Positions 1,782 to 54,100 of a DNA stretch of 64,000 nucleotides are shown piece by piece (position 1 is the stretch's first letter; each line of letters opens with the position of its first letter). The notes beneath the pieces are model-generated. The model saw only the letters and a list, made by a program, of their open reading frames with translations, was not told the DNA's origin and did not search any database. The position numbers were made by a program, and so were the translations under genes. Source of the DNA: Ophelia neglecta (lineage: Eukaryota); NCBI GenBank assembly GCA_965285935.1, contig OZ260661.1, forward strand, positions 60,574,001 through 60,638,000. The letters run 5' to 3'.

Positions 1782-2238
1782 CTGGCGAAGATGACAGTTG
1801 TCTCTGTTTGCCATTTTGACGGTTCTCCCTCATCCACGGGAAGATCTCCTGGGGAGGTTTCATATCAGGTGGTGGCTGAGAGGCATGTGGCTGGGAATTG
1901 TGTTGCTGGGCCCCGGGGGCTGGGCCTGGGCCCTGGGGCTGTACGATGATCGGACCCATACCTGGATTGTTTTCCATACAAGAGGTGGGTGGGTAAGGGT
2001 GATGGTTCAGCTGATAATCCATGGTGTCCGGGAAACCAGCAGATGGTCGGTTGTGGGGGTTGACAGGACCCGGTGGAGGGCCTTGCATGACACAGGACGG
2101 CCTGTAGTTATCCGGGGGTTGAGGTCCGGGCGCTTGGCCCATTCCGTACCCCATCTGGCCTTCATAACTATACCCATTGCAGTTAGGGTAATATCCCTGA
2201 TGATAAGAGTTATTGTGATCGTAGTATGGTTTCTGCAT
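1782..2238 (-). CDS. Hox3: Hox paralogy group 3 homeobox protein, first coding exon (152 codons + 1 nt, phase-1 intron)
   Basis: Translation begins MQKPYYD (Hox3-type MQKxxYYD N-terminus), continues through a Pro/Gln/Gly-rich region and reaches QEIFPWMRENRQNGKQR, matching the PG3 hexapeptide context IFPWMKESRQN. A consensus donor follows SSSP-G. An in-frame TGA two codons upstream fixes the ATG at 2238 as the start. The provided ORF 1600..2238 reads on into the intron. Confidence 0.93.
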
Positions 2239-2260
2239 CTCTCAATTGGTAAATTTTATT

Positions 2261-2299
2261 TCACTCTGACAAGTTTCTGACAGGGGCTAACATTAACAT
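2261..2299 (-). other. Upstream ORF (MLMLAPVRNLSE*) in the Hox3 5'UTR
   Basis: ATG TTA ATG TTA GCC CCT GTC AGA AAC TTG TCA GAG TGA, ending 22 nt before the Hox3 ATG. The ORF is read directly; whether it is translated is unknown. Confidence 0.5.
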
Positions 2300-2302
2300 C
2301 AC

Positions 2303-2339
2303 TTTATGACGACCACGTGCTCCACTCTCGTCCAATCAG
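2303..2339. promoter_or_regulatory. ATG-proximal module: TTTATGAC (Cdx/Hox), CACGTG E-box and CCAATCAG (NF-Y)
   Basis: TTTATGAC 2303-2310, CACGTG 2314-2319 and CCAATCAG 2332-2339, all within 40 bp and 65-100 nt from the start codon. Two CTGACA (TALE-type) sites lie between this module and the ATG. Confidence 0.5.
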
Positions 2340-4002
2340 GAGGCGTCCCGCAATTTACTGCGTTCACTGGGTGCTGAAAAATAAAAAAGCAAGAAATCAC
2401 TCAATGGGCTACTATGCGAGGCGATCCATTACTGTAGCCTGGAAATAAATCATTCTGGATGAGATAACAAGGCGACGGGGGAGCGATTTGCAAGGGACAT
2501 TAGCCTACATTTGGTCGTATAGGCATGAAAGAGTCAATGGGAACTTGTTTAGTGTGGAGCAAGTGCCGGTTTGGAACGGTTTCAAATCACTGCCAGGCCA
2601 TAACGATGCCAATACGGATATTGAAGTGGGGTGGACGATAATATAGCAACAAGAACAATAGTGGATTAACTCCTCTGATCTAGGGGATTTAGCTGGTTGG
2701 AGATAAATCCTTAGCTAGCGGACGTAATCCAGGTGAGATGACCAAACATGTAGCGGTAATTAATTTCTGAATGACATTTAAGCAGGGTCATGGAGGTTGA
2801 TCAGTTGAATTCAGTAGCTAACGTGTTATGAAGGTCACTATTATACGAATTGAGTTTTTCCTTTCCATTCGTATCATAAACATTATATTGTAAAGCATTC
2901 GACCAGAGCAAGTAATATAAAGTTGTAAATAACCTGACCATATAAACCACCATATAACCATGTCTTTATAATAACTGGTGTGGAATCAGACACTCTGTTG
3001 ACTAGTTTCGGCCACCATTGATTATTTTATCAGCAGATATCTAAATAGTTGGGTGACATTCCTCGACTATACTTTTTCATAACATAAAATATCAGGCCGT
3101 CCGTAAAGGTCATCAAATATCAGGCACAACAAATGCTTTACAAGAACCCCATAAGAAATATCGTCTGCTCGTTCAACAAACCGGGGTTAGTATAAGTTTA
3201 GTATACAAACATAGCGGGTAAGTGATACACTGATGTGTGTTTGTTCAATCTGTTAGACATTCACTGCGAAGTCTGCCCCCATACCCTAACCAAATAGCCG
3301 AGTGGAGCCCGTATGTTTGAAGGTGGGGACCTGCAAACCTAACCACGGCCATTTAATGTCAGATAATGTTTGATCCCATCTATAAAACCCTACTCATCCC
3401 CAGTTTAACGCTGTATAATGGGCAATTGAATGAATAGATAGACTGTAGGACCCAAATATTGACGTAAAAATACTGCTTGATTCGGAAGTGCAAAGAATCG
3501 CATGTATGCATCACTCGAGCTCACTCGGATAAATCAGATCTGACAAGTCGATTCTAACATACACAGTCCTGTTGGTGCCATCTCCTCAGCAATGGCATTG
3601 ACATGGCGAATCTTATAATTATTACAGGTCTGAATGAATCTTCCCATTATACTTTAGTTTCATTGTTATAATTTCATCATTCTCAGTTATAATACCAGTT
3701 GTTTCATTGAAATTCATGTCATTTTACTATCCACAGTGCATTCAGTTGAATTTTGTAACACTTGCACTTTGGAATATACAAAAAGTGTGACACCATTCAA
3801 CCTAGTCCCTTTGTACAGGGTTTGAACGTAAAATTTATTCTAACTTTCTCACACATTTTAACAAACGCTGTTATGGAAGCAGACTGTCCAGGCCTTAGGC
3901 TAGGCAAGGCAATGCCACCCCTTTGTCTACTTTAAAGAGAGTCACAGGGGTAAGGTCTTATTAGCCAGGATCTTTTTATAATTTATTCTATTCATTGTTT
4001 AA

Positions 4003-4118: not shown

Positions 4119-7100
4119 GAGAGTCAGATCTTCAAAATAATGGTTATAGGCCTATTACTATCTATTTTTCACAAATAACTGAGGGGCCGCTTAGGAGAAA
4201 CACACTAGGAGAAATACTTCTTGCAATATTTAAAGCCGTGCTAAATGGATAGAAAATACAAAAAGATGTGCTACCGCCGAGATGTACATGCTCGAGAGCC
4301 AACATTAATTTTATTATTTTTGATCAATCAGTGTTCCAAATTTACAGTTCGAGACCTCTATGTATGTCTACGATTCAGCTGTTTGGCCAGACTTCAAGTG
4401 ATATAAATGACGATAAAATATATGATTGAAATTATCAAGGGCCACGAAAAAAACTCTAAATGTCGATCCAAATATGCAAACTATACATAATCAAAAAACA
4501 ACAACTTCTTAATATGTTTAGAACCAAGCAAAGTTCAGCTGTACAAAACACTCCTAGGCAGTTCAATACTCTACCGAGTGTCAATGCTGCCATTTTGGCA
4601 TTAATAACTGACAGAAGTGTATATCGCCATAAAAATATGGAACAAAAGTGTTTAAGCTGTTGACATGGGTATTAGACAGATTTGAAACAATCTTTCAATG
4701 CGAACTATGGCTGAATCTGTGTAAATAACACTAAGATAACATACTCTAGTGTACAGTGCATGACAAGACACTGTATATTACTTTCATAAATACTCTCTGC
4801 CGTTCAGGCCCTGGTTGGGGATTCCTACCTTATGATATGCCCAAGTCATCCACCTTTTTCTAAGATATCTTGTCTATAAAGCGCGTAAATTTTGTAGTTT
4901 TTTAATTCTGAAATTTAGCTTAGCATTCTCGTTCCCTTCAAATGGTGTGGCCAATGCATGCGCAAGACATAAACTAGACTAATGTCTAATTGTATGATGG
5001 GAATTAATCGAAATAAGATAGCAGTTTTCACTTTTATATAATCTAAGCCAACTTAAATGGCCGAAAAATTTACTGAAAATGTTATTACATTACACACGGA
5101 GCAGACTTGTTACCTGTCATAGACTGAATATCAAAATACCTGGCGTCTGTTTATATAGGCTATATGTATGCGTGCAGATTATGCTTACCCGTGTGACTAG
5201 AATCCAAATATTTAAGCCAAATATGTTTTTACTAAATCAGGGATGGCGCCCGCCCTCGTCCTACATTCTATATTATTAACAATTTTACATAACCAATGTC
5301 GTCTGGAATTCATTTAGCGAGCATTAGAGTCCATGCAATATAAAACTATAAATCGACAGTTGACACGAACATGATAAATAATGGTAAACTGTCTTACCGT
5401 CCCAGCTATAGTAAATGTGTCAAGCGATCATGGATTTCCTTTCTGTGACAACTACACATCTCATACAAAGTCCAGAGATGGGGTCGTTTAACCGTTCTAC
5501 ATACCCAATATCTCAATAAAATCAACACCGTCCAGCTAAATGACCACAAACGTATGCCACTTCATAATTCATTCGACAGAGGCCTATATTCAAGCATGTA
5601 CATACAATTGCCAGCCCTAGGGTGCAGTGGGAAATACGCGCCAGTAAAACGTGGTAATTTCTAAAACACACTAGCAGTTTGTAAAATCTATTATTCAAGC
5701 CGATGATTGGCACATCATATGGATCATTTGAATTAATAATATCCCAGCGCACATGTAGTCATTTTAACAACAAAAAAGCTTCACTAAATCGATAGAGAAT
5801 GTTAAAACTTGCACTACAGCAATAAAATGCCATCTCTTCACTGAACGGAAGCTTATTATTTTTAGTGTACACATTATGCATTTCTGAGAGTTGTATTGTG
5901 AACATATAATTATATACAGGCGAGTGACATATCTGACTGGCAGTTTTGACAACTTAAAAGCCGTGTTATTTGTACTAAAGACACTCTAATATCTAGCATG
6001 TGCTGTCAAATAAAAATTAACTCAAAAATCTGAATAGAACGGAAACTGCGCTAGAAACACGATCAGCTGTCATTGGTTCATTGAAAAATCCTATCTTTAG
6101 ACAATGCATGCATTACGACCCAGGACAGTGCACAGTCGGAGCTCCAGCTTTGATATCAATTCCAATTGCAGATCGATATATAGCCAAATGGACTGATTAA
6201 TTTTCGATGGGAATAGTAGGCCTAAGACTGGGTTATACATATAACAACTAATGCGTGTGTCATGTTCAAACTAAAGCTGGTCAGTTAACATGGAATCCCC
6301 ATTATGCCGAAAGGTCAATTTGTGACAATGCGTTTTCTATCGTAAAGTATTATTAGCGCAATTGTTTTCCTGGGTCATAACTCTAATACATTATTTATAA
6401 CTATATCAATGGATTTGTAAAATGACTAGGATAAAATCCATCGAATATAAATCTGGAGTTCTAAGTGTGAATATTTCTTAAGTGGGACACCCTTCGGATG
6501 TTATTAAGCATTCCATTTGCAATGAGTTATCATCCTGATAAAGCTTTAGTCGGGATTTAGCACGGCCAAGGCAGGCCTAAGTACATGTAGCAAGAAACTA
6601 AAATTCTGTACAATTAAGAGATGGCTTCTCTTGGTGCTCATTCCCCGGAGGTCCAATTATAACAAGTATGGAAGAGGAAAATGGGATTGAATTTGGCATT
6701 GAGTTGCTTGTATGAGAAGTTTCATTTCATTTAGTCCAAGTCATAAGCCAGATTAGTTAGTCACAAAGACGGGGATTCGAAATCCCGGCTTTTGCATGCA
6801 AGTAGGTTTAACGCTGTCAGAATTTGACTAAGACACTTGTCATTTTTGTGAAGAGCTTATACCGATCGACGAATTGATATTTTAATTATTTTGTACAAGA
6901 TACCACAACGGATGTAAATCAGACATCTGCAAACTAGGCCAAGCTCGAGACCTCAGTGCTGAGAAACATTATGACATGAATATAGGTCCAATTCACCGTG
7001 AAAACTAATTTATTTATTCCTAAACGAAAACGATTTGTTTTATTTACAAATTTAAAATAGATACTTTACAAGTTGAAAGGGGCATAATATAAAAAAATTC

Positions 7101-18716: not shown

Positions 18717-18756
18717 CAGTTATATGATGGTAAAACTCAAATCAACACGTTTCTGT
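18717..18756 (-). other. Candidate non-coding micro-exon, 40 nt
   Basis: TGTTTTATCCTTTCCAG|ACAGAA...AACTG|GTAAGTTT. Splice signals only. Confidence 0.3.
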
Positions 18757-41811: not shown

Positions 41812-43898
41812 GTTTTGAGAAGTCTAGCGAAAAGGAATATTTAGTTAGCTATGGACACCTTTGGCCCATATGGGTCCATATTGTCTCAATAAATGACATT
41901 TAATGTATTGGGCAGGTTAAACAAAATTATTGCCTAGCCAAAACCTTGATCTGAAGGTCAAGAACATTGTGTTTAATAGATTTCGATATTTAATGTGCTG
42001 AGTTATGCTGACTCAGTCGTCTGCCTGTTTTTATTTACATGTTTAGCCACAGGACCACGACCCCGTTTAGGCTCCAATTTGTAGTAACTGGGCGAAAACA
42101 GTTTGTAGTAGATAAATTACGTGAGACTTCATCAATCTCTTGCTGGCTTCGCCACTTGTAAGTTGTTAAATGACTGTGGCAGGGAAAGGTGTCGGTAAAG
42201 GTAATTTGTCTCCATCTAAATGCCGGCCGACAGTTAATATCATTAAGTCAAATCAACAAACTATTAAGTCAGCGATGAGAATTCAACATAGCCCAGGGAT
42301 GCCCAACATAACGGCTCTCTCATGCTCGCGACATTATTAATTTTTCTGAGGCTATAAAGATTGACCCGGGTGCTAAAGGTGGGCACTTAGAAATATAACC
42401 TTCTAAACAACAATTCATCATTCAGCGCCCGATGGGAGCTAAAATATAATCTGGGGTCACGTTTTTTACTAATGATTATTGCCGTGTTATGACCACGCGA
42501 ATTACACGGGGTGTCGCTTCGGGGTTGATAGGGCCTTCCTCGATGATAAATTCATATCGTCTGCTAGCGAGACGTTTTATGCCGAAAATTGGTCATATTT
42601 TAACTGTCGCTATTCGGTACTTACATTCGCGTGTCGCAAATCACGGCGCGTGTAAAACAGCATCATTTATCTTTCCTTGATTTGCTTCCGAGTTTAACAG
42701 CCATTCAACACTAGTTAAACGTGTAAATGGTACACGTATGATGATAAATTCTTCCTTTATCGCACTAGTATAGTCTATGGTTTTCGAGTTAATGACATTT
42801 TAGCTTGGGAACTATGCATATAACCCTACACCACTTTAAGCTTTTAAACAGGAGGGTTTTTTTTCGTAAGTAGAATAACAAACATACTTTTCCAATGATT
42901 GATGAAATATAATGCAGCAAAGAAATTGTTTATATGAATTTTCAATACGCTGAACGTTAAATTTAGATTCATGTCGCCGTTTATATAGCCTATAGGCCCG
43001 GTTAAGATAATACATATAAAGTAAGATTAAATAAAGTAAGCCTACAGCTCCTAGGCTTATCAGAAAGTCATCGTAAAGACTGAAGTTTAACACAGACCCA
43101 TGAGAATATGATTGGGCGGATTTTTAGATTATGATGTTTTCGTTCATAACACCTTCTACTCCAAGAGCCATATGAATACCATCACGGAGACTTTTGCATA
43201 GATCAGTCTTGATAGCTGATGATCATTTCTAGATGCTCTGCTTGGTGCAATATTTGGGGATGAAACATGGATGTTAAAACTGTCAGTAACGTTAGAACTG
43301 GTGCAATTCTAGCCGACGACATTCTCGACATTCCTCAAAAACGCAGCGAGAGAGACCCACAAGATTGCGGGATCTGGCACACCCTGATTCTATTAACAGT
43401 GACAAGTTCCGCTGCCAGAATCGTTTCTCTGATATTTGTTTTGCAATTCTGCCATTTTCTCTCTCAGTTCGCCCGGTCGGCCCGCTAGGTCAAGAGAAAA
43501 ATCCAATTATATCCCTCTCGTCTTAGTCTGCAGATAGCAAAGCTGTCAAACTTTCGCCGAAATGCTGGCCACATGATCAGTAATTAGCAAATTCTAATTC
43601 CATTCGACCCTGAAGTGAATGTCAGTACCAATACTATATCAATATTTTATCTACGGGTTTGAGAGTCGACCTTTTATTCCGCCTGCAGCCGCTTGGGAGA
43701 CCTTGTCAGGATTTGTAGGAGTTTATGAATAGAAATCCCCGTTGCTTAATCATACATATTTCTTATATTATCATAGAATACCACTTTATTCTTATCACAG
43801 CAAAATATCTCGATGTTTGAGCAACACCCTTTACTATTTTTTCAACTACCACTGTCTTGTCAGAACTAAGATGGATGAACTCTGTGCTAGAATCGATC

Positions 43899-43918
43899 GC
43901 AGCGCCCCCTACAATAAC
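43899..43918 (-). promoter_or_regulatory. Weak candidate CTCF site
   Basis: Minus strand ...ATTGTAGGGGGCGCTGC. The 3' half matches consensus and the 5' CC is absent. Confidence 0.2.
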
Positions 43919-46900
43919 AATGACACGCACTGGCTTCAGGCCAGTGTGCTGAAATTGTAACTGTAAACGAAATTGGTGAAACGGGCAGGGATTTAGTAAT
44001 CAAATTAATGCATAACAGCACTTGGCAATGTCGCCAAAGGCTAAGTGAAATTGTATGTACCCAACAACCCTAGAACATAAACAACCTGGGATATTTGGCA
44101 AATAAAATCTCCAAATTACAGTCCCTCGGCTATATATTAACTTAACATTAATTATAAAAAGTAAACGCTATAGACTGCATGGGTTTTGGTTTAGTTATGT
44201 AAAAAAAGCAGATACGAATTTCACGAAAATAACCAATAGTGTGATTCACAGATAGGAGGTATTTGGATCTAGTCTTTCGGGCTTTGTATATCACCATGGC
44301 CCTGCCTGGTGGTCTGTACGGCCGGCAAATCCACTCGGGAGAAGCATCAACGATATCTTCTCGCTCGGAAACCTCTTATTGTATTCATGATAAAAACTGA
44401 CCCAAGTCTAATGGAAAGATTGTCCTACAGAGATACCGATCGATCGGACTTCTGTACGAATCTAGATTGGAACGAAAAGAAAAATTCATTTAATCCCGAT
44501 TTCTGAATACATTAACTTCAGTTTCCTACAAGTTTGTAACATTGTTTTTGCAATATCAAATAAAAGATATTTGCATTGATTTTGATACACCTCTCTCTAG
44601 CTTTATTACTAAAATAATAAAAATGTTTGTGGGTTTTGTTGATGTCTGCTAAATTTACACACACAACCAACGCCACTCCTTGCCGTATTTGCCTCGATTT
44701 TCTATTTTAATGCTCATCCCGGTTTTCAAATTTATTGCTAATCCCGGGTAATATTTCGTTAGTTTACATCAAATAGTTATAAAATATAACTTTATTTTAA
44801 GAGGGGGGTTGCAAGAACATGCCTTCCAATTTACGTCAGACGCTGGTGTGCAGCCTCTAGCTGTATGCTCGAGGGCAGACGACAATTGGTCAAGACAGAC
44901 CATGTGTGCATGCTGCAAGTGTAGGCCTGTAACCTTACTGGACAAACAACTCATGCATATTAAATATGACCTATATATATAGTCTACAAAACTGAATGAT
45001 CGAATATATCCGATTATCGACATATATAATTATTTACATATTCAGCTTGCCTGATGTATTGCCTGGCCGTATATTAAGTATAACTATATAGACCTATATG
45101 TGATAACTATTCGAGTGACATTTTTGCAAAACCTAATTTTCATTCCTTAAATTGATAATATCATCAACAAAATTATCGAAAAAATGAAAAACCGACACTT
45201 TCACTTTGTTATTCAACAAATAATCCGATACCGTGTACGCGTTTTACTACATAATAAAGGCGCCATTGTATTTTATTTAAATTAACATTTATAAAGATGT
45301 ACATCGGTAACTTCAATGATCGTTTAAATATTTTTGATCTCACTCTCTGTTGTCACTTGTCAGCGGCCTGAAAGCCCATGTTACTTGAGTGGACAACTTA
45401 TCAAGTACGTGTGAAATTATTGAGCTTTTTCACTTTTAATCAGGTTTAAAAATGGCTGCAAAACTGTAAAATTCTTTTCGAAGCCAATCATTCGATCGTA
45501 ATTGGCAATTTCTGTCCTATGAAATTATCGTTTTTTTGGCAGGTTGAATCATTCGCTGAAAATAATGAAATTTACAGCAAGGTTACTTCTCTCTATGGCC
45601 TTTCAGATGATTCAACTGAGTGATATAAGATACTTTATTTCAAAACAAAGCGGTCTTTGTGACAGCAAAGGTGGAGGAAAAACAAGCAGAGAAAAACTAA
45701 ATTGGAGCATCGTGTACCAGCCATTTGCTTCTATGTTGCAGACTCTTTTCATTTATTTTGTTCCCATGAGTTGAAGAGATTTTGCGGTCTTCTTTGATTT
45801 GTCAAATTTAGCTGTCAAGGGACCCAGAGGGCATGCCCAAATAGCTGTATTCTCTTTTTGTGTATAGGTGATCCTTTGAGGGCCCCAGACAGGGGACTCT
45901 TTCAGAGTGCTTTGTCAAATCAGCGCTGTTGTCGTTTCCTCTCACATCGTTTTGGTCTTAGCAGGCTTTTGTTTGGTTTTAGCAAAGCACAAAGCCCCTG
46001 TCGGCTGTTCGGCCTGCCTTATGGTGTACCACCAAGTCGTTGTGAGTTGGTTTCACCATTTCAAACTTTGCGCCATCGGCACTGTGCGCCTCCCAGCAAC
46101 CGTACGTGACCGAAATACGATCGGAGAGGCAAGCCACCTCCAGAGAAAATGTTATAGGTCACGGGGTCCCCTTCGTGTATCTGGCGGGTAACACCACCAT
46201 GGCGAAAACTCCTAAAACTTTGTGATGTGGGGCGGAAGCGCCTTGTTCTAACCCTGAATGCTACTTTCACCGATATAATGGAAATTTTCTTTGTTTCTTT
46301 TGTGCTGCATAAACCTGATTCATTCAGCACGCTTACAGTGAAGGGTCATTTTCCAAGTGAATATTGAATTCAGCGGGGAAGAAAGAAATCTATCGATTTT
46401 CTGCCCCAAGATGAATTCATAGTTGGTTTTTCATTATATCAGAAGTGCATTAGCGTGTGTTGTGCATCCTTAACAGCAGAATACGTCACATGGTATGAAT
46501 GTTTAAAAATACCCAATATTTACTCTCGATTATATATGACATGAGCCATTCAGGCAATTGCAATGTCTTCATTTAGGGCGCAGACTAGTCCGGAAGGCAA
46601 ATTTATTGAACTATATAAAAATATCGACAAATCTGGCATGGCTCCCACGAAATTGATGCAATTGTAAGGAAAAAGCAGAAACTCGAAAGAGGCTGCACAA
46701 ATGTAAGTGAACACACGAGACTTAGAGTTCACTGTCAAATGTGCGAAATCTGTTGGCAGGCCGGCAGATAGTGTGGCATAAAAAGGGAGTATCGGTAATA
46801 GAAATGGAACAGCTGCGATGTGAAATCTGTTTAACACCGAAATCTGCATATCGCCCAAGGTAAAAGCGAATTTGCTGATAGCCGACAACCGACCTTTGTA

Positions 46901-49839
46901 GTTCACTACATGTTTAAATTCTTGCCCGAGTTTTGTGTTAAACAAATTGTCAATAGGATATTTTTTGGTAGTTTCAGTCAGCATATTTTCTGACTGTCAA
47001 TTTAATTGTGATTGTTATACATAAATGCAATTCATTCAGTCATATATCTATACGCCCTGGTAGCAATTTTAACAAATACATATTAATTATTTGTATACAT
47101 ATAGATGCTAAAAACTGAACATATCAATTCAATTTCCATCGGGCTTCAGAGTATAAATACATGAGTGATGATACTCACACAATTAAATACCGTTTTATCC
47201 AATTAGCAAGTTATAAAGGAAATGCTCTATTTATGTTTTACAAAATATGTAGAAGTAAACACACAGCATTATTCTATACAATACTTGTTTCAAGGCAAAC
47301 TATTTCTTTGAAAAAAAACGAAGAAATGTGCAAATGACGTGAAAATTCGTTTAGACAAGGGCTTAGTATATTTTGTGTTTGGCCAGCTTGTATCTCGCAG
47401 GGCTCTTTTACAAATGGCCCGGGGCCATCTACAACAATGGGACATTTATGCTCATCAGAATATATTCCTTGCTTGCTGGAACTAATTGTTTTGTGAATTT
47501 AGGGACCCATTGCAAATAATCATCTTAGAGGCTTTATACTTTTAGTCCTTTGGTTTTTTCTGCAATATCAATCTCAGTTAACAACTGTATGCTAAATAGG
47601 TTTTCCTGGCCCTTCGTATCTCAGTTTTGGTAGATTAAGCTATTTCACAGCGATAATTCACCGAAACTCCATACTCTGTACCGGTTTAGTATTTGACAGC
47701 TGCCTTCAAAGATGACCTTTCTGTTACGGCGGAGAGCAGCACCCTAACTCTCTGGGAAAATAGAGAATTTAGCGGCCTTTATCTGACCACGTCGGCTTGC
47801 TTTAGCAGCCTAGATAACTGATGTTTTGTTCGTCTGCTCTATATGTCGGTCTGACAGCTGATAATTTTTTAAACTTCACGTGTTTTCCCTTCGATCAGAC
47901 ATGAGATAAACATCTCGATGACCTGGTTAAGGCATGTTGTGAATATTAAGCAAATAGTTTGGAAAATATCGTTTAAGTTTAAACTTTGCACTATACAGCT
48001 ACTAATTATTTTTAAATCCGGGCAGTCTGGTGCTAATCTAAATAAATCGTTCTTTAATAGCTCATAAAATGCAAATATATATTTGAATTTCTCAAACATC
48101 TCCTACACTCTTTACGATGTATATCATTTGCAGTTGGTGAATATATCTAGTTTTATAAGTGTACATTATATTCGGATGATATACAACCAGACAGGCGCCA
48201 TTATTAAGCGACACTCCGCAAATAATTTGTGAAATTAAAACTTTGGAAACAGAACTTTTTTGACATGACAGATTCCTGGATTTTGTCGAGCACATTTCCA
48301 AATTAATTTGGAATATTTTGGTTGAATGGTCACTCACATTAGTAATAAAGAACAACAAAACTTATTCTAAAGTATCTTAGATCAAGAGTTCCAGGTTCTT
48401 ATATATTTTTAAATCTTGTTGTCGGTCACACAGTGTTGGACCATCTCAATCATCGTCAATTCTAAGCGACCACCACGATACTTGGTGTAAACAATTCCAT
48501 CGAAAAGTTCATAACATATTGGGAATGTTTGAAAAACAAGGTGAATGGGTCCCACATCCGCATGTATCATAGGAACTAGTTTGAGTCGAAACAGGCCTGA
48601 TGTTGAGTCAGCAAAGCTTTGGCCAGTATAGATTACTGTATACCATTTCATAGTTTGTGAAATGCTATAGTCCAGGGGTGTGGAAAAAATCATTGAGTCA
48701 GTTGTGTATTTTACATAAAAATCGACAACTAAGATACGGTGTACTTGGATTTCATCTAAATAAACGATTGGATGACCGTTGTTTTGTAACTATATAGCTA
48801 ACTGGCTTCAGGCACTGTGAACTTATCTGGCACACCAAAATCAGACTTAGACTTAGGCCGTAGGTTCGTACGGGGTCGAGGGAAGTGACGGAATTTTGAC
48901 GAAATAAAGCCTCCCAGCGTAGTCGGGGTAACATTGACAGAAAAGCTCATATACAGGCTGACGGCTCAATTTTATAAGCTCGACTCAATAGCAATATTAA
49001 CAACTGAGCCGTGAAATCTGCAGAGTTCAAGTGGAATGGTATAATCCAATTCTTCCTTGAGCAGCATTTCAATTTAAGGTCTGAGTATTTCAGTCATTTC
49101 CGAGACCAGGGTGTTATTTCAATCTAGTCATCTCAAGGAGCGAATATATTTCTATACTCACATGGTAAGTTAAGTGAACCAATTTGACACCCATGAAAAT
49201 GGCACCCAGAGATTGCTTGAAATAAAAATAATTAGCATTGATTTGTCTATAAGCTCCTATAAAAATCTATCAGCAGAGAGTCTGAGAGTCATAAATCAGT
49301 CCAAGAGATCAAATAAATGCAAAAGCAAGGTTAGCAAATATGTTTTAGTTCATTTCAACTTTCGAATAGTATTTGAAACTGCAGTTAGAGTTCGTTAAAA
49401 TGTCTTTCAAGTCTATCGAATGCATCTATATAGTTCTTCGACTGGTCATTTTTTATTACTGAAACCCTCTAATATATCTCGTATTTCTATAACAACGTTG
49501 AATATTTTATTTTTAAGAATTTCGCTAATCTACCATCATTTAGGCCTATATATAAACACACAGCTGAACACCTCCATGCTGTCGCATTACTCACTCGAGA
49601 CAGACGAGTGACATCTATAGAGGGCAAAAGCGAAATGCAACATATTTATATCACATGCTCAGCAACCATTTTGAAAAACATAATAACACAATCAACGCCA
49701 AATAGGTTTGTATACGATCAAACTCGTGTATTTTATAACTGAAGCATGCAGATAGACAAACCGTGCGTTTTGTTTTAGCTACACATAAAAAAATTACCAA
49801 ACAATGGCGTAATGAGGTCAGCATTTATTTGAAACATAC

Positions 49840-49952
49840 CTTTTTTTGGTTGCTTTGGTTTCCCACACGCTGGTTAATTTGCTCCCTGCCCGATCCGTAC
49901 AGTCTTTACTATTATTATCTGGCAGTAACATTGTTATTTTCTTCTCTAGGAG
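49840..49952 (-). other. Candidate non-coding (Hox3 5' leader) exon, 113 nt
   Basis: Acceptor with branch-like CTAAT: CTAATTTTCTGTATTTGCAG| (CAG 49955-49953). Donor AAAG|GTATGT (GT 49839-49838). Purine-rich GAAGAA near the exon start. Confidence 0.45.
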
Positions 49953-50188
49953 CTGCAAATACAGAAAATTAGGCGTATAAGGTGCAGGAGCCATTGCGAG
50001 GAACCCGAGGCCGTTTGGGTTAACCTTGACACGTTGGTCGCATGAATATGTGGCAGCCATCTTGCTTTTGTGGAAGCAGATGTCTAGCTTCAGGAACGCT
50101 GTTAAATCCTGCAGAAATGGCGATTTTTAGCAAACTTACCTTTTCCATCATAGCCAGAAAGAAGTGGGAGACTGTATGGATCCTGAAG
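49950..50188 (+). ncRNA. Candidate exon of the pri-miR-993 host transcript (antisense to Hox)
   Basis: Acceptor TTGTTATTTTCTTCTCTAG|G (AG 49948-49949) and donor GAAG|GTGAGT (GT 50189-50190). It lies ~820 nt upstream of the miRNA hairpin on the same strand. Strong downstream acceptors are at 51719-20 and 51961-62. Confidence 0.35.
50140..50182 (-). other. Candidate non-coding exon (43 nt, or 3' end of a first exon)
   Basis: Strong donor AAAG|GTAAGT (GT 50139-50138) would give a 187-nt intron to the acceptor at 49953. Possible acceptor ATTAACTCACCTTCAG| (50185-50183). Confidence 0.35.
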
Positions 50189-51011
50189 GTGAGTTAATCA
50201 GCAGTGTTTTCGTCAGTAGTTCCTGTTTTTCGTTTGTTCTAATGCCATTGTCTGGTGGGAAAGCATCAGGTCTGAGGCTAGCGTGCCGGAGCGGAACGCA
50301 TATTCAATGCGAAATGGCTTTATGGCCATTTATCATATTATCACCGGCTGGGCACAAATTGTTTTCCTGTTGTGACATTAATGCCAAGAACCACCATTAA
50401 GACACAATAAAAAGAGGCACCGTTTACCTCTCCTTCAGAGTGATTTCGTTCTAGCAAATACAGTTTTATTGCCTCTAATAACATTACACTGCGCCTCTTT
50501 TTCTAGCCGGAAAGTCTGGTGCATAATATATGTAAATTCGAAAGAAATACAGCGAACTTCTCTATGATTCTTTATATTAGATTTAAATCGTAGATTGTAA
50601 AATATACCTTATATAAAAATCAGTTTAATAGAACTCCGACTTATAGCTTGGAATTGTGTCTAAATATATACAAGTCGGCCTGTGCTTCATATATCACTTG
50701 GGCTGACGTGCATCAACAAGAAGTGTTTGTGCTGCCACTAGCAGCCAGTCTGCATAATGTATTCACCATGTTTTGAGAGTAGCAAGGGAAGACGTCTAAA
50801 CAGCTGATTACCAACAGGGAAAATTGCTTTATTATTGTCAAATACTGTGGTGTTTATTGTATAAATTCGTTAGATTGTGTTGCAGAATTGCTCCCGGTGC
50901 TGATCTGCTGGGTCCCGAGGCCGAGAACTGACCGAAAATTAGATTGGTATGGAGAAAACCGACGGTATGGCCGAAGACTACCAACGGAATGATGGGAACG
51001 GCAGCACCATT

Positions 51012-51102
51012 GCACTTTCCATATCTACCCTGTAGACCCGGGTTTGTGTGTCATTATTGACCCCTACAGAAGCTCAGATCTACAGGTATATATTGAGAGT
51101 GC
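51012..51102 (+). ncRNA. mir-993: pre-miRNA, miR-10 family, miR-993 type
   Basis: The 5p arm (C)TACCCTGTAGACCCGGGTTTGTG (51025/6-51048) has the miR-10-family start. The 3p arm GAAGCTCAGATCTACAGGTATAT (51069-51091) matches the miR-993 pattern GAAGCUC...UCUACAGGUAU. The arms pair with one bulge and three mismatches. Lower stem GCACTTTC/GAGAGTGC, basal UG at -14 (51011-12) and apical UGUG are present. It lies between Hox3 and Hox4 on the opposite strand, as known for mir-993. Confidence 0.92.
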
Positions 51103-54100
51103 TACCAACATAGCCTGGCCTAGATCAGCCCAGATGGATCAACTCCAACTGACCTGACCATATGACCTCTCAGCATGGAATGATGGACTCAGAGAAAAAT
51201 GCCATTTATCTTCCTTTCACAAAGGCTAATAGGCAGTAGGCAGCTACTACAGAATTGGTGGTAGGGGGAGGATAGTTCACGTGTTTGCTGCTAGATGTCG
51301 GTGCGGACAGGCCAATGTTTTGGTGAATTTGATCCACCATTGACAGGGGCCTGATTGCACTGTTTGCTAGAATAGCATTTCGCTTTAGAATTCTCGGGAT
51401 ATTTCTTAGTAGGAGGTACCTTGGGAGTTCGTTCCACATGACCCTTTCACCCAATGCCCCAAAGGTCGGGATAGACCATGTCTGAGATAGAGCTCTTCTC
51501 TGTCGATGTGGGCTGGTTTTCCCGTAAGGCAATTGACAGCCGTGTTCGTGATCAGCCAACCGAACCTTCTCGCTTTAAACTTCATCCTCTGAGATTAATA
51601 CCCTGAGCCGTACCACCAATCAATACGTGTGACTCTCCCTAGACAATATGAGTTGATATTAGCTTTATCTACGCTACGAAGCGCCATCAATAGATTGGTT
51701 TTCCTTGGGTTTCTTCCCAGGTCAATCTGCTGGCACTGTGGTACAAGTCAAAGCTCAATGACCCCAGACCAAAGGGGGATTTCATATTAGCGATTTGGGG
51801 CTCAAGAGGATTTGAGCACATGTGAGAAGTGAAACAACCTGTGTGTAGGGCACTCCCTGAGTGACCCACATTTCATCCCTGGATGCCTCTGTCTCAGTTG
51901 GCTGCACAATACCGGATCATCGCTAAATTAGATCTGCTCCCCCGTCTCCATTTCTCCTACAGCTTCAAATCTCCGATGTTTAGTTCGAAATCAATACGAC
52001 CACCGAAGTGTTGATCTCTCTTTCTGTCTGCCTTGTTGCCTTTCACTTTGTGGGACAATGAAATAGTCCAGGGGTTAAATAAGCCTAAGTGTAAAACCAA
52101 ACTATTGAACATACATGTAAGTCATGTGGATTATTCTTTGTCATAAATGAAAAGAGATTTTGTCCGGTAGATCAGTGAAGTTCACCACAATTAGACTGTC
52201 ACACTTTTTTGCTACTTTCAAAAAATAAGGTTCGAGCGTTTTCGTGCATAAACGAATCTCTTTTACGACCAATAGCTGATAGCGTTACTAAGACGATTTC
52301 ACCCATTACCCGCCTACATCGTCATGACAACACTCCTTTCCATGAGCGGTGCAGTCAGCTGACGCATTACGTCATCTCAGGCGACCTTGACCTTTCCCCT
52401 ATTCCACCAGGTGTTCATAGTATACCTAATCAATCTAATTATTAAAGGAAAACGCTTTCCTATTGCATTTCAAAAGCAAATATTCGGTTTAGTCGTTGTT
52501 TTTCTTTTTATAATTGTAATAATTGAAGTTTAATTCAAGTGGAATGAATAGTATTTTAAATTATCAATCATGAGCCCGGTGCCCTTGTCAAGATGTTTGC
52601 ATGCTAAATCGATCTTGCTTCTCTCCTCAAGGATATATTGGGAACAGGTGTGTATTGATAATTTTGAAACAAATCGAAAAATCGATTTATTTTATTCTGG
52701 TGTTCACTTTGTTATTTTTTGGACGGCAGTATATCGAAAATCGATCCATCATTTTCACAGCTTTACTAGTGAAAATCCTTCAATACCTAATTATCACTCA
52801 ACCAGGAGTATACTCACTACTCACATTAACCAGGAGAAAAGCTTGATCTCAATTGATATTCAATTATTGCGATTTTTACTTGCAACTATTTAATTATCCA
52901 TAAAATACTTTTTCGATGTTATCCCTATGTCTTTAGGTTTTCAGATACAGCATTGTATCATGGCAGGTCATCGATATCTATTTAAGATAAAATCCTATGA
53001 GCAATCGCCGTTTTTTTTTTCATTGAGAGGAATTGTCATAATCATCTGTCTGTATTCATATAGAATTATTTTGCTAGAATTATTCTATACTGTTTTTCCG
53101 TGAAATACAATGCAACAAGAAAGTTTAGAAATGAGCTGCCACTTTGAGACTCGATGAATAACGATAATGATATGAAGTTTAAACCTTTTTTCTTATAAAA
53201 TAAGAGTTTAAAAACAAATATCTTACTATTTTTGTTTGTGGAAGGCTTATTGAATAAAATTATTATGAAAATAAAAGAAAATGTATCTGTCCATTTTCTC
53301 ACTATCTGAAGTGTTCGATAATCATAAAATTTACATATAGGCGTAAACAAATGGGCATCGGAGCTCTGAAGTAGACCAATAACATACATGCTGGGCAGAA
53401 TATCTTAAAAAAGAAATTTTTACAGTTGGTAATGTCAATTTTTGAGTAATGAATAATATGATGTTAACATAAATTTACTTCATCTGGAGTTTTTATACTC
53501 TATGCTAGCCCATTATGCTTAAGTTCGTTAGGGATACATTTTAAGGTTTTCTCCACAGGTTTATGCTTCAAAGACATATTATAACATATTTATCTACCAA
53601 CTAGTTTTAATACTTAGCATATGTATGTGCCAATATTCCCTTACGGGAGAACATTGTAGCCTTGCAAGGTAACACGGAGTAAAGAAATTCAATAGTTACA
53701 AAATAAATCGCGAGCCGTCTAGGTCGTTTATCAAGCTCCAATTAATTAAACCTGTACGCATAGTAACGTTTAAGTATAGTAACACACATGGTAAATTCTG
53801 TGTTATGTCAATAAATATACATGAGTTTTTAATATGTCAGTTGGAGACTTAATGGACATTGTGTTAAAGAGCACATGTGTCTGACCTTAGGCACATCAAT
53901 TATATATCTATATAGATGAAGGTGGACGTGAATAAATTACCATGAGTACCCGGAGTGGCATATCGATTCATCTGTCATATAATGACATATTTAGTCCACA
54001 TCGCAAATAGCACAGAAACTGATGATGCCACAACAAATGCGCAGTGACCTCTCCAGCCATTTGACCCTGAAGCCATTAGGGCCCCTCGGCGGGCATCATG

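Follow-up and report, generated by a model that had tools for sequence, protein, structure and literature searches.

The question raised by this locus in Ophelia neglecta is whether splice motifs found on both strands beside miR-993 mark two overlapping RNAs, and what such an overlap would do in an annelid Hox cluster. The window analyzed here is the whole stretch of 64,000 nt (Table 1); splice sites were scored on both strands of 164 kb with generic splice matrices. From the observed motifs, hairpin and gene order we infer transcription, splicing and a link to Hox3. Our best explanation, taken whole and held at a probability of about 0.4, is that strong splice motifs of both strands, within 400 nt of each other and ∼1 kb from the hairpin, sit on a likely constrained control element; that the plus strand likely yields a spliced miR-993 host RNA that traverses this element as exon 49950–50188; and that donor 50139 is likely where a Hox-sense RNA departs from it, probably an untranslated exon of Hox3 situated far upstream.

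Table 1. Observed and predicted features of the window (positions are those of the whole stretch;., no strand).
Feature	Position	Strand	Remarks
Hox3 first coding exon, 592 nt	1782..2373	-	strong acceptor 2374 just upstream
Top-scoring predicted minus micro-exon of the Hox3–Hox4 interval, 40 nt	18717..18756	-	20.8 bits
Variant-free stretch	49788..50511	.	assembly vs. contigs of same individual
Cluster of 8 ATGGC/GCCAT	49804..50329	.	densest 600 nt of 164 kb
Predicted minus exon, 113 nt	49840..49952	-	ends at donor 49839; 9.8 + 9.0 bits
Predicted non-coding host exon, 239 nt	49950..50188	+	acceptor 49949, donor 50189
Predicted minus intron, 187 nt, nested inside plus exon	49953..50139	-	21.6 bits
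12-mer common to upstream element of worm-type miR-993 loci	50020..50031	+	identical in L030, L031, L032
Minus donor, full consensus, intron start 50139	50134..50142	-	rank 12 of 17,807
43-nt minus exon of the original prediction	50140..50182	-	acceptor 50183, 5.5 bits; upstream end doubtful
Predicted host intron holding miR-993	50189..51720	+	alternative acceptors 50438, 51962, 52410
TATA-like motifs	50576; 50610-50619	-; +	proposed divergent promoters
miR-993 hairpin, miR-10 family paralogue	51019..51096	+	antisense to Hox genes
Further predicted host exon	52411..52647	+	21.7 bits, third-ranked plus exon of 164 kb

The hairpin has miR-993-type arms (5′ …CCGGG, 3′ GAAGCUC), not those of miR-10, and a pattern search matched it once in the animal's own genome. 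Against the Rfam mir-10 model it scored 35.9 bits (E 2.9e-6), under the gathering score of 47.5, at which threshold the whole window gave no match. Folding z-scores of −4.15 on the plus strand and −1.93 on the minus strand indicate that one strand is preferred. The hairpin sits between Hox3 and Hox4 on the strand opposite to the Hox genes, with a separate miR-10 at +112 kb on the Hox strand; arms, location and orientation relative to the Hox genes and miR-10 are the same as those reported for protostome miR-993 (PMC4862073, PMC3049427).

The original prediction described splice sites of the two strands lying back to back and interlocked, and all of its motifs are in place: plus acceptor 49949 and minus acceptor 49953 with a gap of 3 nt, minus donor 50139, minus acceptor 50183, plus donor 50189, and plus acceptors 51720 and 51962. 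Four of the five around the overlap are strong. Plus donor 50189 and minus donor 50139, the latter a full consensus, rank 5 and 12 of 17,807 GT, and plus acceptor 49949 and minus acceptor 49953 rank 24 and 113 of 18,424 AG; minus acceptor 50183 (5.5 bits, rank 1,088) is weak and mostly a by-product. On the same matrices, putative Hox3/Hox4 intron ends scored 8.9–12.7 bits and the best Hox2 donor candidate 5.9 bits. The interlock at 50183–50194, in which the plus donor would double as the pyrimidine tract of a minus acceptor, exists as a pair of motifs but is almost automatic, because any consensus donor is pyrimidine-rich when read as its reverse complement and CTG/CTA lies ≤9 nt upstream of 18.6% of AGs. 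The minus exon upstream of donor 50139 could be longer than 43 nt, or a first exon.

The four-site overlap, scoring about 45.7–45.8, is the best in 164 kb. Among real control stretches of this genome (10 kb, n = 48) one matched this score, i.e., ∼1 per 480 kb; the nested, back-to-back form, defined after the locus had been seen, occurred in none of the 48. An order-5 Markov null, none of whose 200 windows matched 45.7, was rejected as a measure of significance for being too favorable compared with real control DNA. Matrices self-trained on 98 putative exons of the controls, a circular procedure, brought 28 of 96 strand-stretches up to the four-site score and lowered significance to 40/384, so the significance of the overlap is model-dependent. 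Since equal overlaps occur about once per 480 kb, what matters is nearness (∼1 kb) to miR-993: arithmetic from that rate puts the chance of an equal configuration falling so close to the hairpin, no more than a few kb away, at ∼1%.

Exon 49950–50188 is the top plus exon of the 164 kb (24.2 bits), and the densest 3 kb of plus sites of ≥10 bits is found here (8 vs. 1.6 expected). The exon has stops in two frames, and its third frame is without Pfam-tested ORF support. One frame of the predicted 113-nt minus exon is free of stops. Pfam searches of three local ORFs gave no significant match, for which reason no coding role is proposed; by splice scoring and Pfam, the strand antisense to the Hox genes carries exon-grade splice sites and lacks a conserved ORF. 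A spliced plus-strand host of miR-993 thus stands as a prediction with good support. The original prediction puts the hairpin inside intron 50189–51720, but plus acceptor 50438 (11.2 bits), which the original prediction lacked, is strong and lies 5′ of the hairpin, so that miR-993 need not sit in that intron. Neither a miR-993 host transcript nor the overlap of one with a Hox3 leader came to light in the literature searched. Drosophila pri-mir-10 is a spliced, polyadenylated primary transcript of a Hox-cluster miR-10-family microRNA, for which the available account (PMC3290615) reports no interlocked opposite-strand exon.

Conservation of the paired splice sites was not borne out among more distant loci (not congeners): a four-site score of ∼45.8 was reached at none of 26 other miR-993 loci, the best scoring 39.6. 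The sole splice site to recur in position is the minus donor: 10 of 13 worm-type loci have a donor-like site whose offset from a motif in common with the window is the same as here. At these 13 loci (one incomplete) no acceptor or plus donor of ≥9 bits occupied the matching place, and acceptor 49953 of the nested minus intron was without a match in other loci. Three anchors in the window, AGCTG, an ACCTTG motif and the minus donor (−72/0/+116), are collinear with those of the worm-type loci (about −57 to −129/0/+108 to +125); this pattern fits one of eight motif copies in 164 kb against a background of ∼1e-4 per 3 kb, for anchors picked after seeing the window. The sole copy of TT[AG]ACCTTGACA on either strand of the 164 kb is the 12-mer of Table 1, which we take to resemble a nuclear-receptor half-site. 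A ∼220-nt element upstream of miR-993, common to the 13 worm-type loci, is on this sequence comparison probably also present in this animal. The worm-element profile matched the window only at E 9.2, and BLASTN of 47–55 kb against 55 miR-993 loci returned nothing beyond the hairpin at E 0.01 and weak short matches only at E up to 10. Several likenesses were set aside: one seen by eye to locus L054 was equaled by 323 of 500 shuffles; the likenesses to L053, which outscored all 60 shuffles, and to L012, which outscored 59 of 60, were discounted, 26 loci having been tried with permissive scoring; and the worm motif TGAAGGT, considered as a conserved plus donor, is not collinear with the plus donor of the window.

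This recurring minus site bears on the alternative that survives best, though we consider it unlikely, namely that the plus strand alone is spliced, as the miR-993 host, and that the minus sites arose by chance or as by-products of factor motifs. In control DNA an intron pair of equal strength on the opposite strand accompanies 1 of 42 strong exon-like units, which favors plus-only splicing, as does the weakness of minus acceptor 50183. The worm donor-like site reads RCAGGTGY in 12 of 12 cases, with G at +5 in 10 of 12 and A at +4 in none of 12, and could equally be an E-box. A full-consensus donor lies antisense within the Hox4 coding sequence as well, and such sites can therefore arise without function. 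Against this, minus donor 50139 is a full consensus that in this species is not an E-box and stands at the conserved offset (chance 0.012), and three more minus sites of ≥9 bits lie within 49200–50200, placing it in the top 1.3% of 1-kb windows.

The case for a constrained element is indirect. Comparison of the assembly with three DNA contig sets from one individual revealed the variant-free stretch right beside 13 SNVs in 50512–51473, with P 0.09 when only the splice zone is considered and P 0.14 when the longest gap is; the same individual is nearly homozygous over 42426–48872, and the gap is a weak sign of constraint. The ATGGC/GCCAT words, presumably the YY1/Pho-type core, number 8 vs. a mean of 1.36 per 600 nt, with a scan-wide P of 0.119. 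Together with the three collinear anchors, these two signs point to an element that is likely constrained. Such an element, lying between Hox3 and Hox4, might act as an enhancer or as a boundary/Polycomb element of the YY1 type, with the splice motifs of both strands incidental. The density of the YY1-core cluster fits this account, as do worm-locus conservation that looks like factor sites, the 3 of 48 control stretches (480 kb) with all four sites at ≥9 bits, and reports that annelid TAD boundaries are enriched in YY1 motifs and that Capitella Hox1–3 are grouped in one subTAD (bioRxiv 10.64898/2026.05.18.725834). We nevertheless judge incidental motifs improbable, as the top-ranked exon and five further strong plus sites around the hairpin would be left unaccounted for, and the cluster is not significant scan-wide and was not seen in the worm-type loci. 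An enhancer or boundary function is compatible with our best explanation and does not exclude it.

The gene to which the Hox-sense RNA would probably belong lies far off, and we name it Hox3 from its hexapeptide and homeobox motifs. Hox3 exon 1 gave nothing significant in Pfam or in a homologue search, nor did a second minus ORF, from the same end of the window, in Pfam. Acceptor 2374 (11.0 bits, rank 50) lies 135 nt upstream of the Hox3 ATG, and an upstream exon is therefore implied. Capitella teleta Hox3 is reported to span 27.8 kb in four exons of 385, 46, 563 and 2,070 bp, the third corresponding to the coding exon here, and RACE recovered no upstream exons beyond two, which are separated by 16.6 kb and presumably untranslated (PMC2603591). 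Because Capitella Hox3 possesses these upstream exons, including a 46-bp micro-exon, a far-upstream leader is plausible in this animal, whereas the available account of Capitella describes no small-exon pair 187 nt apart. The micro-exon at 18717–18756 may, by analogy, be a candidate counterpart of the 46-bp exon. Donor 50139 likely ends a Hox-sense non-coding exon, but nothing links it to Hox3 as the original prediction had it: the Hox3–Hox4 interval holds 13 minus donors of ≥10 bits, this one included. Scaling from Capitella places a leader exon anywhere from ∼38 to ∼59 kb according to the ruler chosen, with proportions favoring 38–40 kb.

Divergent promoters without overlap would offer another source for such a leader, with a Hox3 first exon of ∼400 nt starting near 50545 and ending at donor 50139, and pri-miR-993 starting near 50640. 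The weak acceptor 50183 would then not be needed, the exon would be near the size of Capitella's 385-bp first exon, TATA-like motifs are found on both strands, and the variant-free zone stops at 50511. We find this arrangement decidedly doubtful, however, as it would not account for the top-scoring plus exon of the 164 kb, TATA-like words are frequent (155 in the window), variants occur at 50512, 50519, 50553 and 50578, and the proposed exon would contain 11 upstream ATGs.

The original prediction went further and proposed a mutual-exclusion switch, in which each RNA would run over the other's promoter and a cell would make either the Hox3 leader or miR-993. The geometry is of the convergent 5′-overlap kind, interference by non-coding transcription is reported in fly Hox clusters (bxd, iab-8), and annelid Hox genes are reported to show complementary sense/antisense domains (bioRxiv 2021.01.30.428931). 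We give this proposal little credence, as the four-site architecture is absent from the other loci and overlapping splice motifs alone do not couple transcription. The related suggestion that the overlap explains why miR-993 stays between Hox3 and Hox4 is contradicted by species reported to keep miR-993 at its site with no Hox3 next to it (PMC4862073), as at locus L023, and this also speaks against the switch. Equally improbable is an annelid-wide dual-use element on which convergent promoters of the Hox3 leader and the miR-993 host, with first exons overlapping on a YY1-rich Hox1–3/Hox4 boundary, would toggle Hox3 vs. miR-993 by choice of strand.

We return to a likely constrained control element that two RNAs would use, on which a real spliced miR-993 host probably overlaps a Hox-sense exon, as judged from the motifs. 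If both RNAs exist, their 5′ ends would overlap and polymerases would run toward one another across a single element rich in YY1 motifs; shared regulation is the likely outcome, with mild local interference at most. The tight interlock would be in part a by-product of crowding two transcripts, together with factor sites, into a single constrained stretch, and not a dedicated switch.

Non-coding transcripts running over a Hox regulatory element have a precedent in strand-switching Polycomb response elements. The same is reported for Drosophila bxd/Ubx and iab-8, with iab-4/iab-8 also a microRNA host; those cases are known from expression and genetics, whereas ours is predicted from sequence and would place the overlap between two 5′ ends. 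Antisense non-coding transcription in the Hox3–Hox4 region, as predicted here, is described for human HOXA-AS2 and HOXB-AS2 (PMC8293171) and for nereid antiHox3/antiHox4, a weak antiHox3 being among the known annelid antisense Hox RNAs (bioRxiv 2021.01.30.428931); the available accounts in these two sources do not report any of them as microRNA hosts.

The analysis provides exact predicted junctions for a miR-993 host, a transcript that we did not find described in the literature searched. If both RNAs are real and exclusive, annelids would possess a Hox switch between sense and antisense, placed at what is likely the border of a sub-domain; otherwise the locus would be an ordinary antisense microRNA host within the Hox cluster.

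All of the splice motifs named in the original prediction were found where it placed them, and those around the overlap were ranked with generic splice matrices scanned over 164 kb including the window (see table). Full-consensus donors numbered only five in the 164 kb, namely the Hox3 and Hox4 intron donors, 50189 and 50139, and a fifth that runs antisense to the coding part of Hox4, with ∼1.6 expected by chance per 64 kb. An opposite-strand pair of such donors no more than 100 nt apart arose in 0/400 simulations and at none of the 18 full-consensus donors that 480 kb of real control DNA contained. The predicted interlock between 50189 and the minus acceptor 50183 stood as a motif, but is nearly automatic. 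A 102-codon open frame (49818–50126, minus), without a Pfam match, spans the predicted minus intron and the predicted 113-nt exon, and the predicted 43-nt minus exon has two ATGs at its end; together these could form an upstream ORF. In L005, a stretch holding Hox4, a full-consensus donor (∼4318–4326, plus) runs antisense to Hox4 within its last coding exon, either by chance or as the donor of an antiHox4 RNA like those cloned in Alitta. Immediately upstream of the Hox4 start in L005 (∼6030–6075) are YY1-core, CACGTG, and CCAAT motifs, and similar motifs occur in the vertebrate Hox4 promoter.

Features of the Hox cluster around miR-993, in window positions unless relative (ranks are among GT or AG dinucleotides in 164 kb)
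Feature	Position	Strand	Remark
Hox2	−14 to −24 kb relative to window	−	motif matches
Hox3 homeobox	about −1.2 kb relative to window	−	motif matches
Hox3 first coding exon	1782–2373	−	motif matches
Further plus donor	49165	+	
Further minus donor	49839	−	closes predicted 113-nt exon
Plus acceptor	49949	+	rank 24/18,424
Minus acceptor	49953	−	rank 113/18,424
Minus donor	50139	−	rank 12/17,807
Minus acceptor	50183	−	rank 1,088/18,424
Plus donor	50189	+	rank 5/17,807
Further plus acceptor	50438	+	before miR-993 hairpin
miR-993 hairpin	51019–51096	+	
Further predicted plus exon	52411–52647	+	
Hox4	+88.6 to +89.9 kb relative to window	−	motif matches
miR-10	+112 kb relative to window		

Every Hox gene of the cluster that includes the window is on the minus strand; gene names are presumptive, assigned to motif matches by diagnostic residues, and Pfam and homologue searches with Hox3 exon 1 gave no match. 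The likeliest reading, at about 40%, is that a predicted spliced host RNA of miR-993 and a predicted non-coding exon in Hox sense would cross at their 5′ ends within a single constrained element; the two RNAs would then be controlled together, with interference mild at most. Divergent promoters are an improbable rival.

The overlap of 49949, 49953, 50139, and 50189 scored 45.7, a value that no other place in 164 kb reached (the next independent overlap had 39.9) and that exceeded 200/200 Markov windows; the plus exon alone was equalled in 36/200. Real control DNA is a less forgiving test: the score was equalled in 1/48 stretches of 10 kb, and an equal opposite-strand intron lay on 1/42 strong exon-like units, so such overlaps would be met by chance in a genome scan. 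Self-trained matrices, whose training is circular, gave 28/96 and 40/384 instead. The weight of the overlap lies in its place beside miR-993 and in the constraint, YY1, and cross-species signs.

miR-993 is present in one copy by pattern, with arms resembling published miR-993. One metagenome scan yielded 55 miR-993 loci, 37 once near-identical ones were collapsed and 26 with at least 1 kb upstream; the 5′ arm is identical to that of 20 of the 37 (“worm-type”) and unlike the arthropod type, which points to a probable annelid. The configuration of the window was reached in 0/26 loci, and any configuration was present in 5/26 (best 39.6). An upstream element was common to 13 of 17 worm-type loci with at least 1 kb upstream, three others having no motif within their 1.0–1.6 kb and L054 a partial match. 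A minus donor-like site of at least 9 bits lay 108–125 nt from its ACCTTG motif in 10/13 loci (window, 116), and an AGCTG-like word 57–129 nt away on the opposite side in 10/13 (window, 72). The 12-mer around ACCTTG is single-copy in 164 kb, and this place is the sole fit there to the three-anchor pattern. Against this, a profile search with the worm-type element matched the window only at E 9.2, the worm-type donor-like site is also readable as an E-box in 12/12, and none of the 13 loci had an equivalent of either acceptor or of the plus donor with at least 9 bits at the corresponding position. The element is probably homologous between the window and worm-type loci, and the predicted minus donor 50139 is somewhat favored as real. 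Splicing on the plus strand alone is the strongest rival, though doubtful.

The worm-type element is ∼220 nt long, 0.9–2.9 kb upstream of miR-993 (e.g., L012, L063, L032), with words that we take to be Meis-, Pbx-, nuclear-receptor-, E-box-, and Hox-like. Separately, a presumably CTCF-like motif lies 130–214 nt upstream of the hairpin in 16 worm-type loci (e.g., L045, L041, L053), inside a conserved ∼300-nt block; none was found near the window's own hairpin.

In DNA contigs of one individual, 49788–50511 and 51474–52047 had no variants and 50512–51473 had 13 SNVs. The variant-free splice zone alone had P = 0.09 and the longest gap P = 0.14; splice zone, hairpin, and acceptor zone were jointly variant-free at P = 0.007, with zones chosen post hoc. 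Eight cores that we take to be YY1-type also fall within 600 nt of this region, more than in any other such stretch of the 164 kb (average 1.36; P = 0.119 for the whole scan). According to one preprint, YY1 motifs are enriched at TAD boundaries in annelids, and Hox1–3 share one subTAD in Capitella (bioRxiv 10.64898/2026.05.18.725834). An enhancer or boundary alone, for which these cores count, is unlikely. Elsewhere in the same individual, 42426–48872 (6.4 kb) had one indel and no SNV between polymorphic blocks, and short repeats with many loose-ended contigs at ∼54.4–56.4 and 59.3 kb are probably small mobile elements.

An acceptor 135 nt upstream of the Hox3 ATG implies upstream Hox3 exons. 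In Capitella, the Hox3 gene is made up of four exons (385, 46, 563, and 2,070 bp) separated by introns of 16.6, 6.7, and 1.4 kb (PMC2603591, in the part consulted); by analogy, the top-scoring predicted minus micro-exon between Hox3 and Hox4 (18717–18756, 40 nt) may be the counterpart of the 46-bp exon. Candidate Hox3 first-exon donors number 13; the Capitella share of the Hox3–Hox4 gap, 0.41, is nearer 40 kb than 50 kb (0.56), and intron-by-intron scaling allows 54–59 kb.

A true switch between a Hox3 leader and pri-miR-993, proposed as a possible reason for the position of miR-993, has little probability here. It is an unlikely basis for that position across protostomes, because miR-993 is retained between pb and Dfd in Strigamia with Hox3 absent from that place and beside pb in Tetranychus, which lost Hox3 (PMC4862073, consulted in part), and in locus L023 is antisense with a pb-type homeobox 5.2 kb away and no other homeobox motif between them. 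The literature searched, mostly at listing level, gave no description of pri-miR-993 structure. Overlapping 5′ ends of a miR-993 host and a Hox-sense exon would belong to a known kind, since antisense Hox RNAs are described, in the parts of the sources consulted, from annelids (bioRxiv 2021.01.30.428931) and from between human HOXA3 and HOXA4 (PMC8293171).
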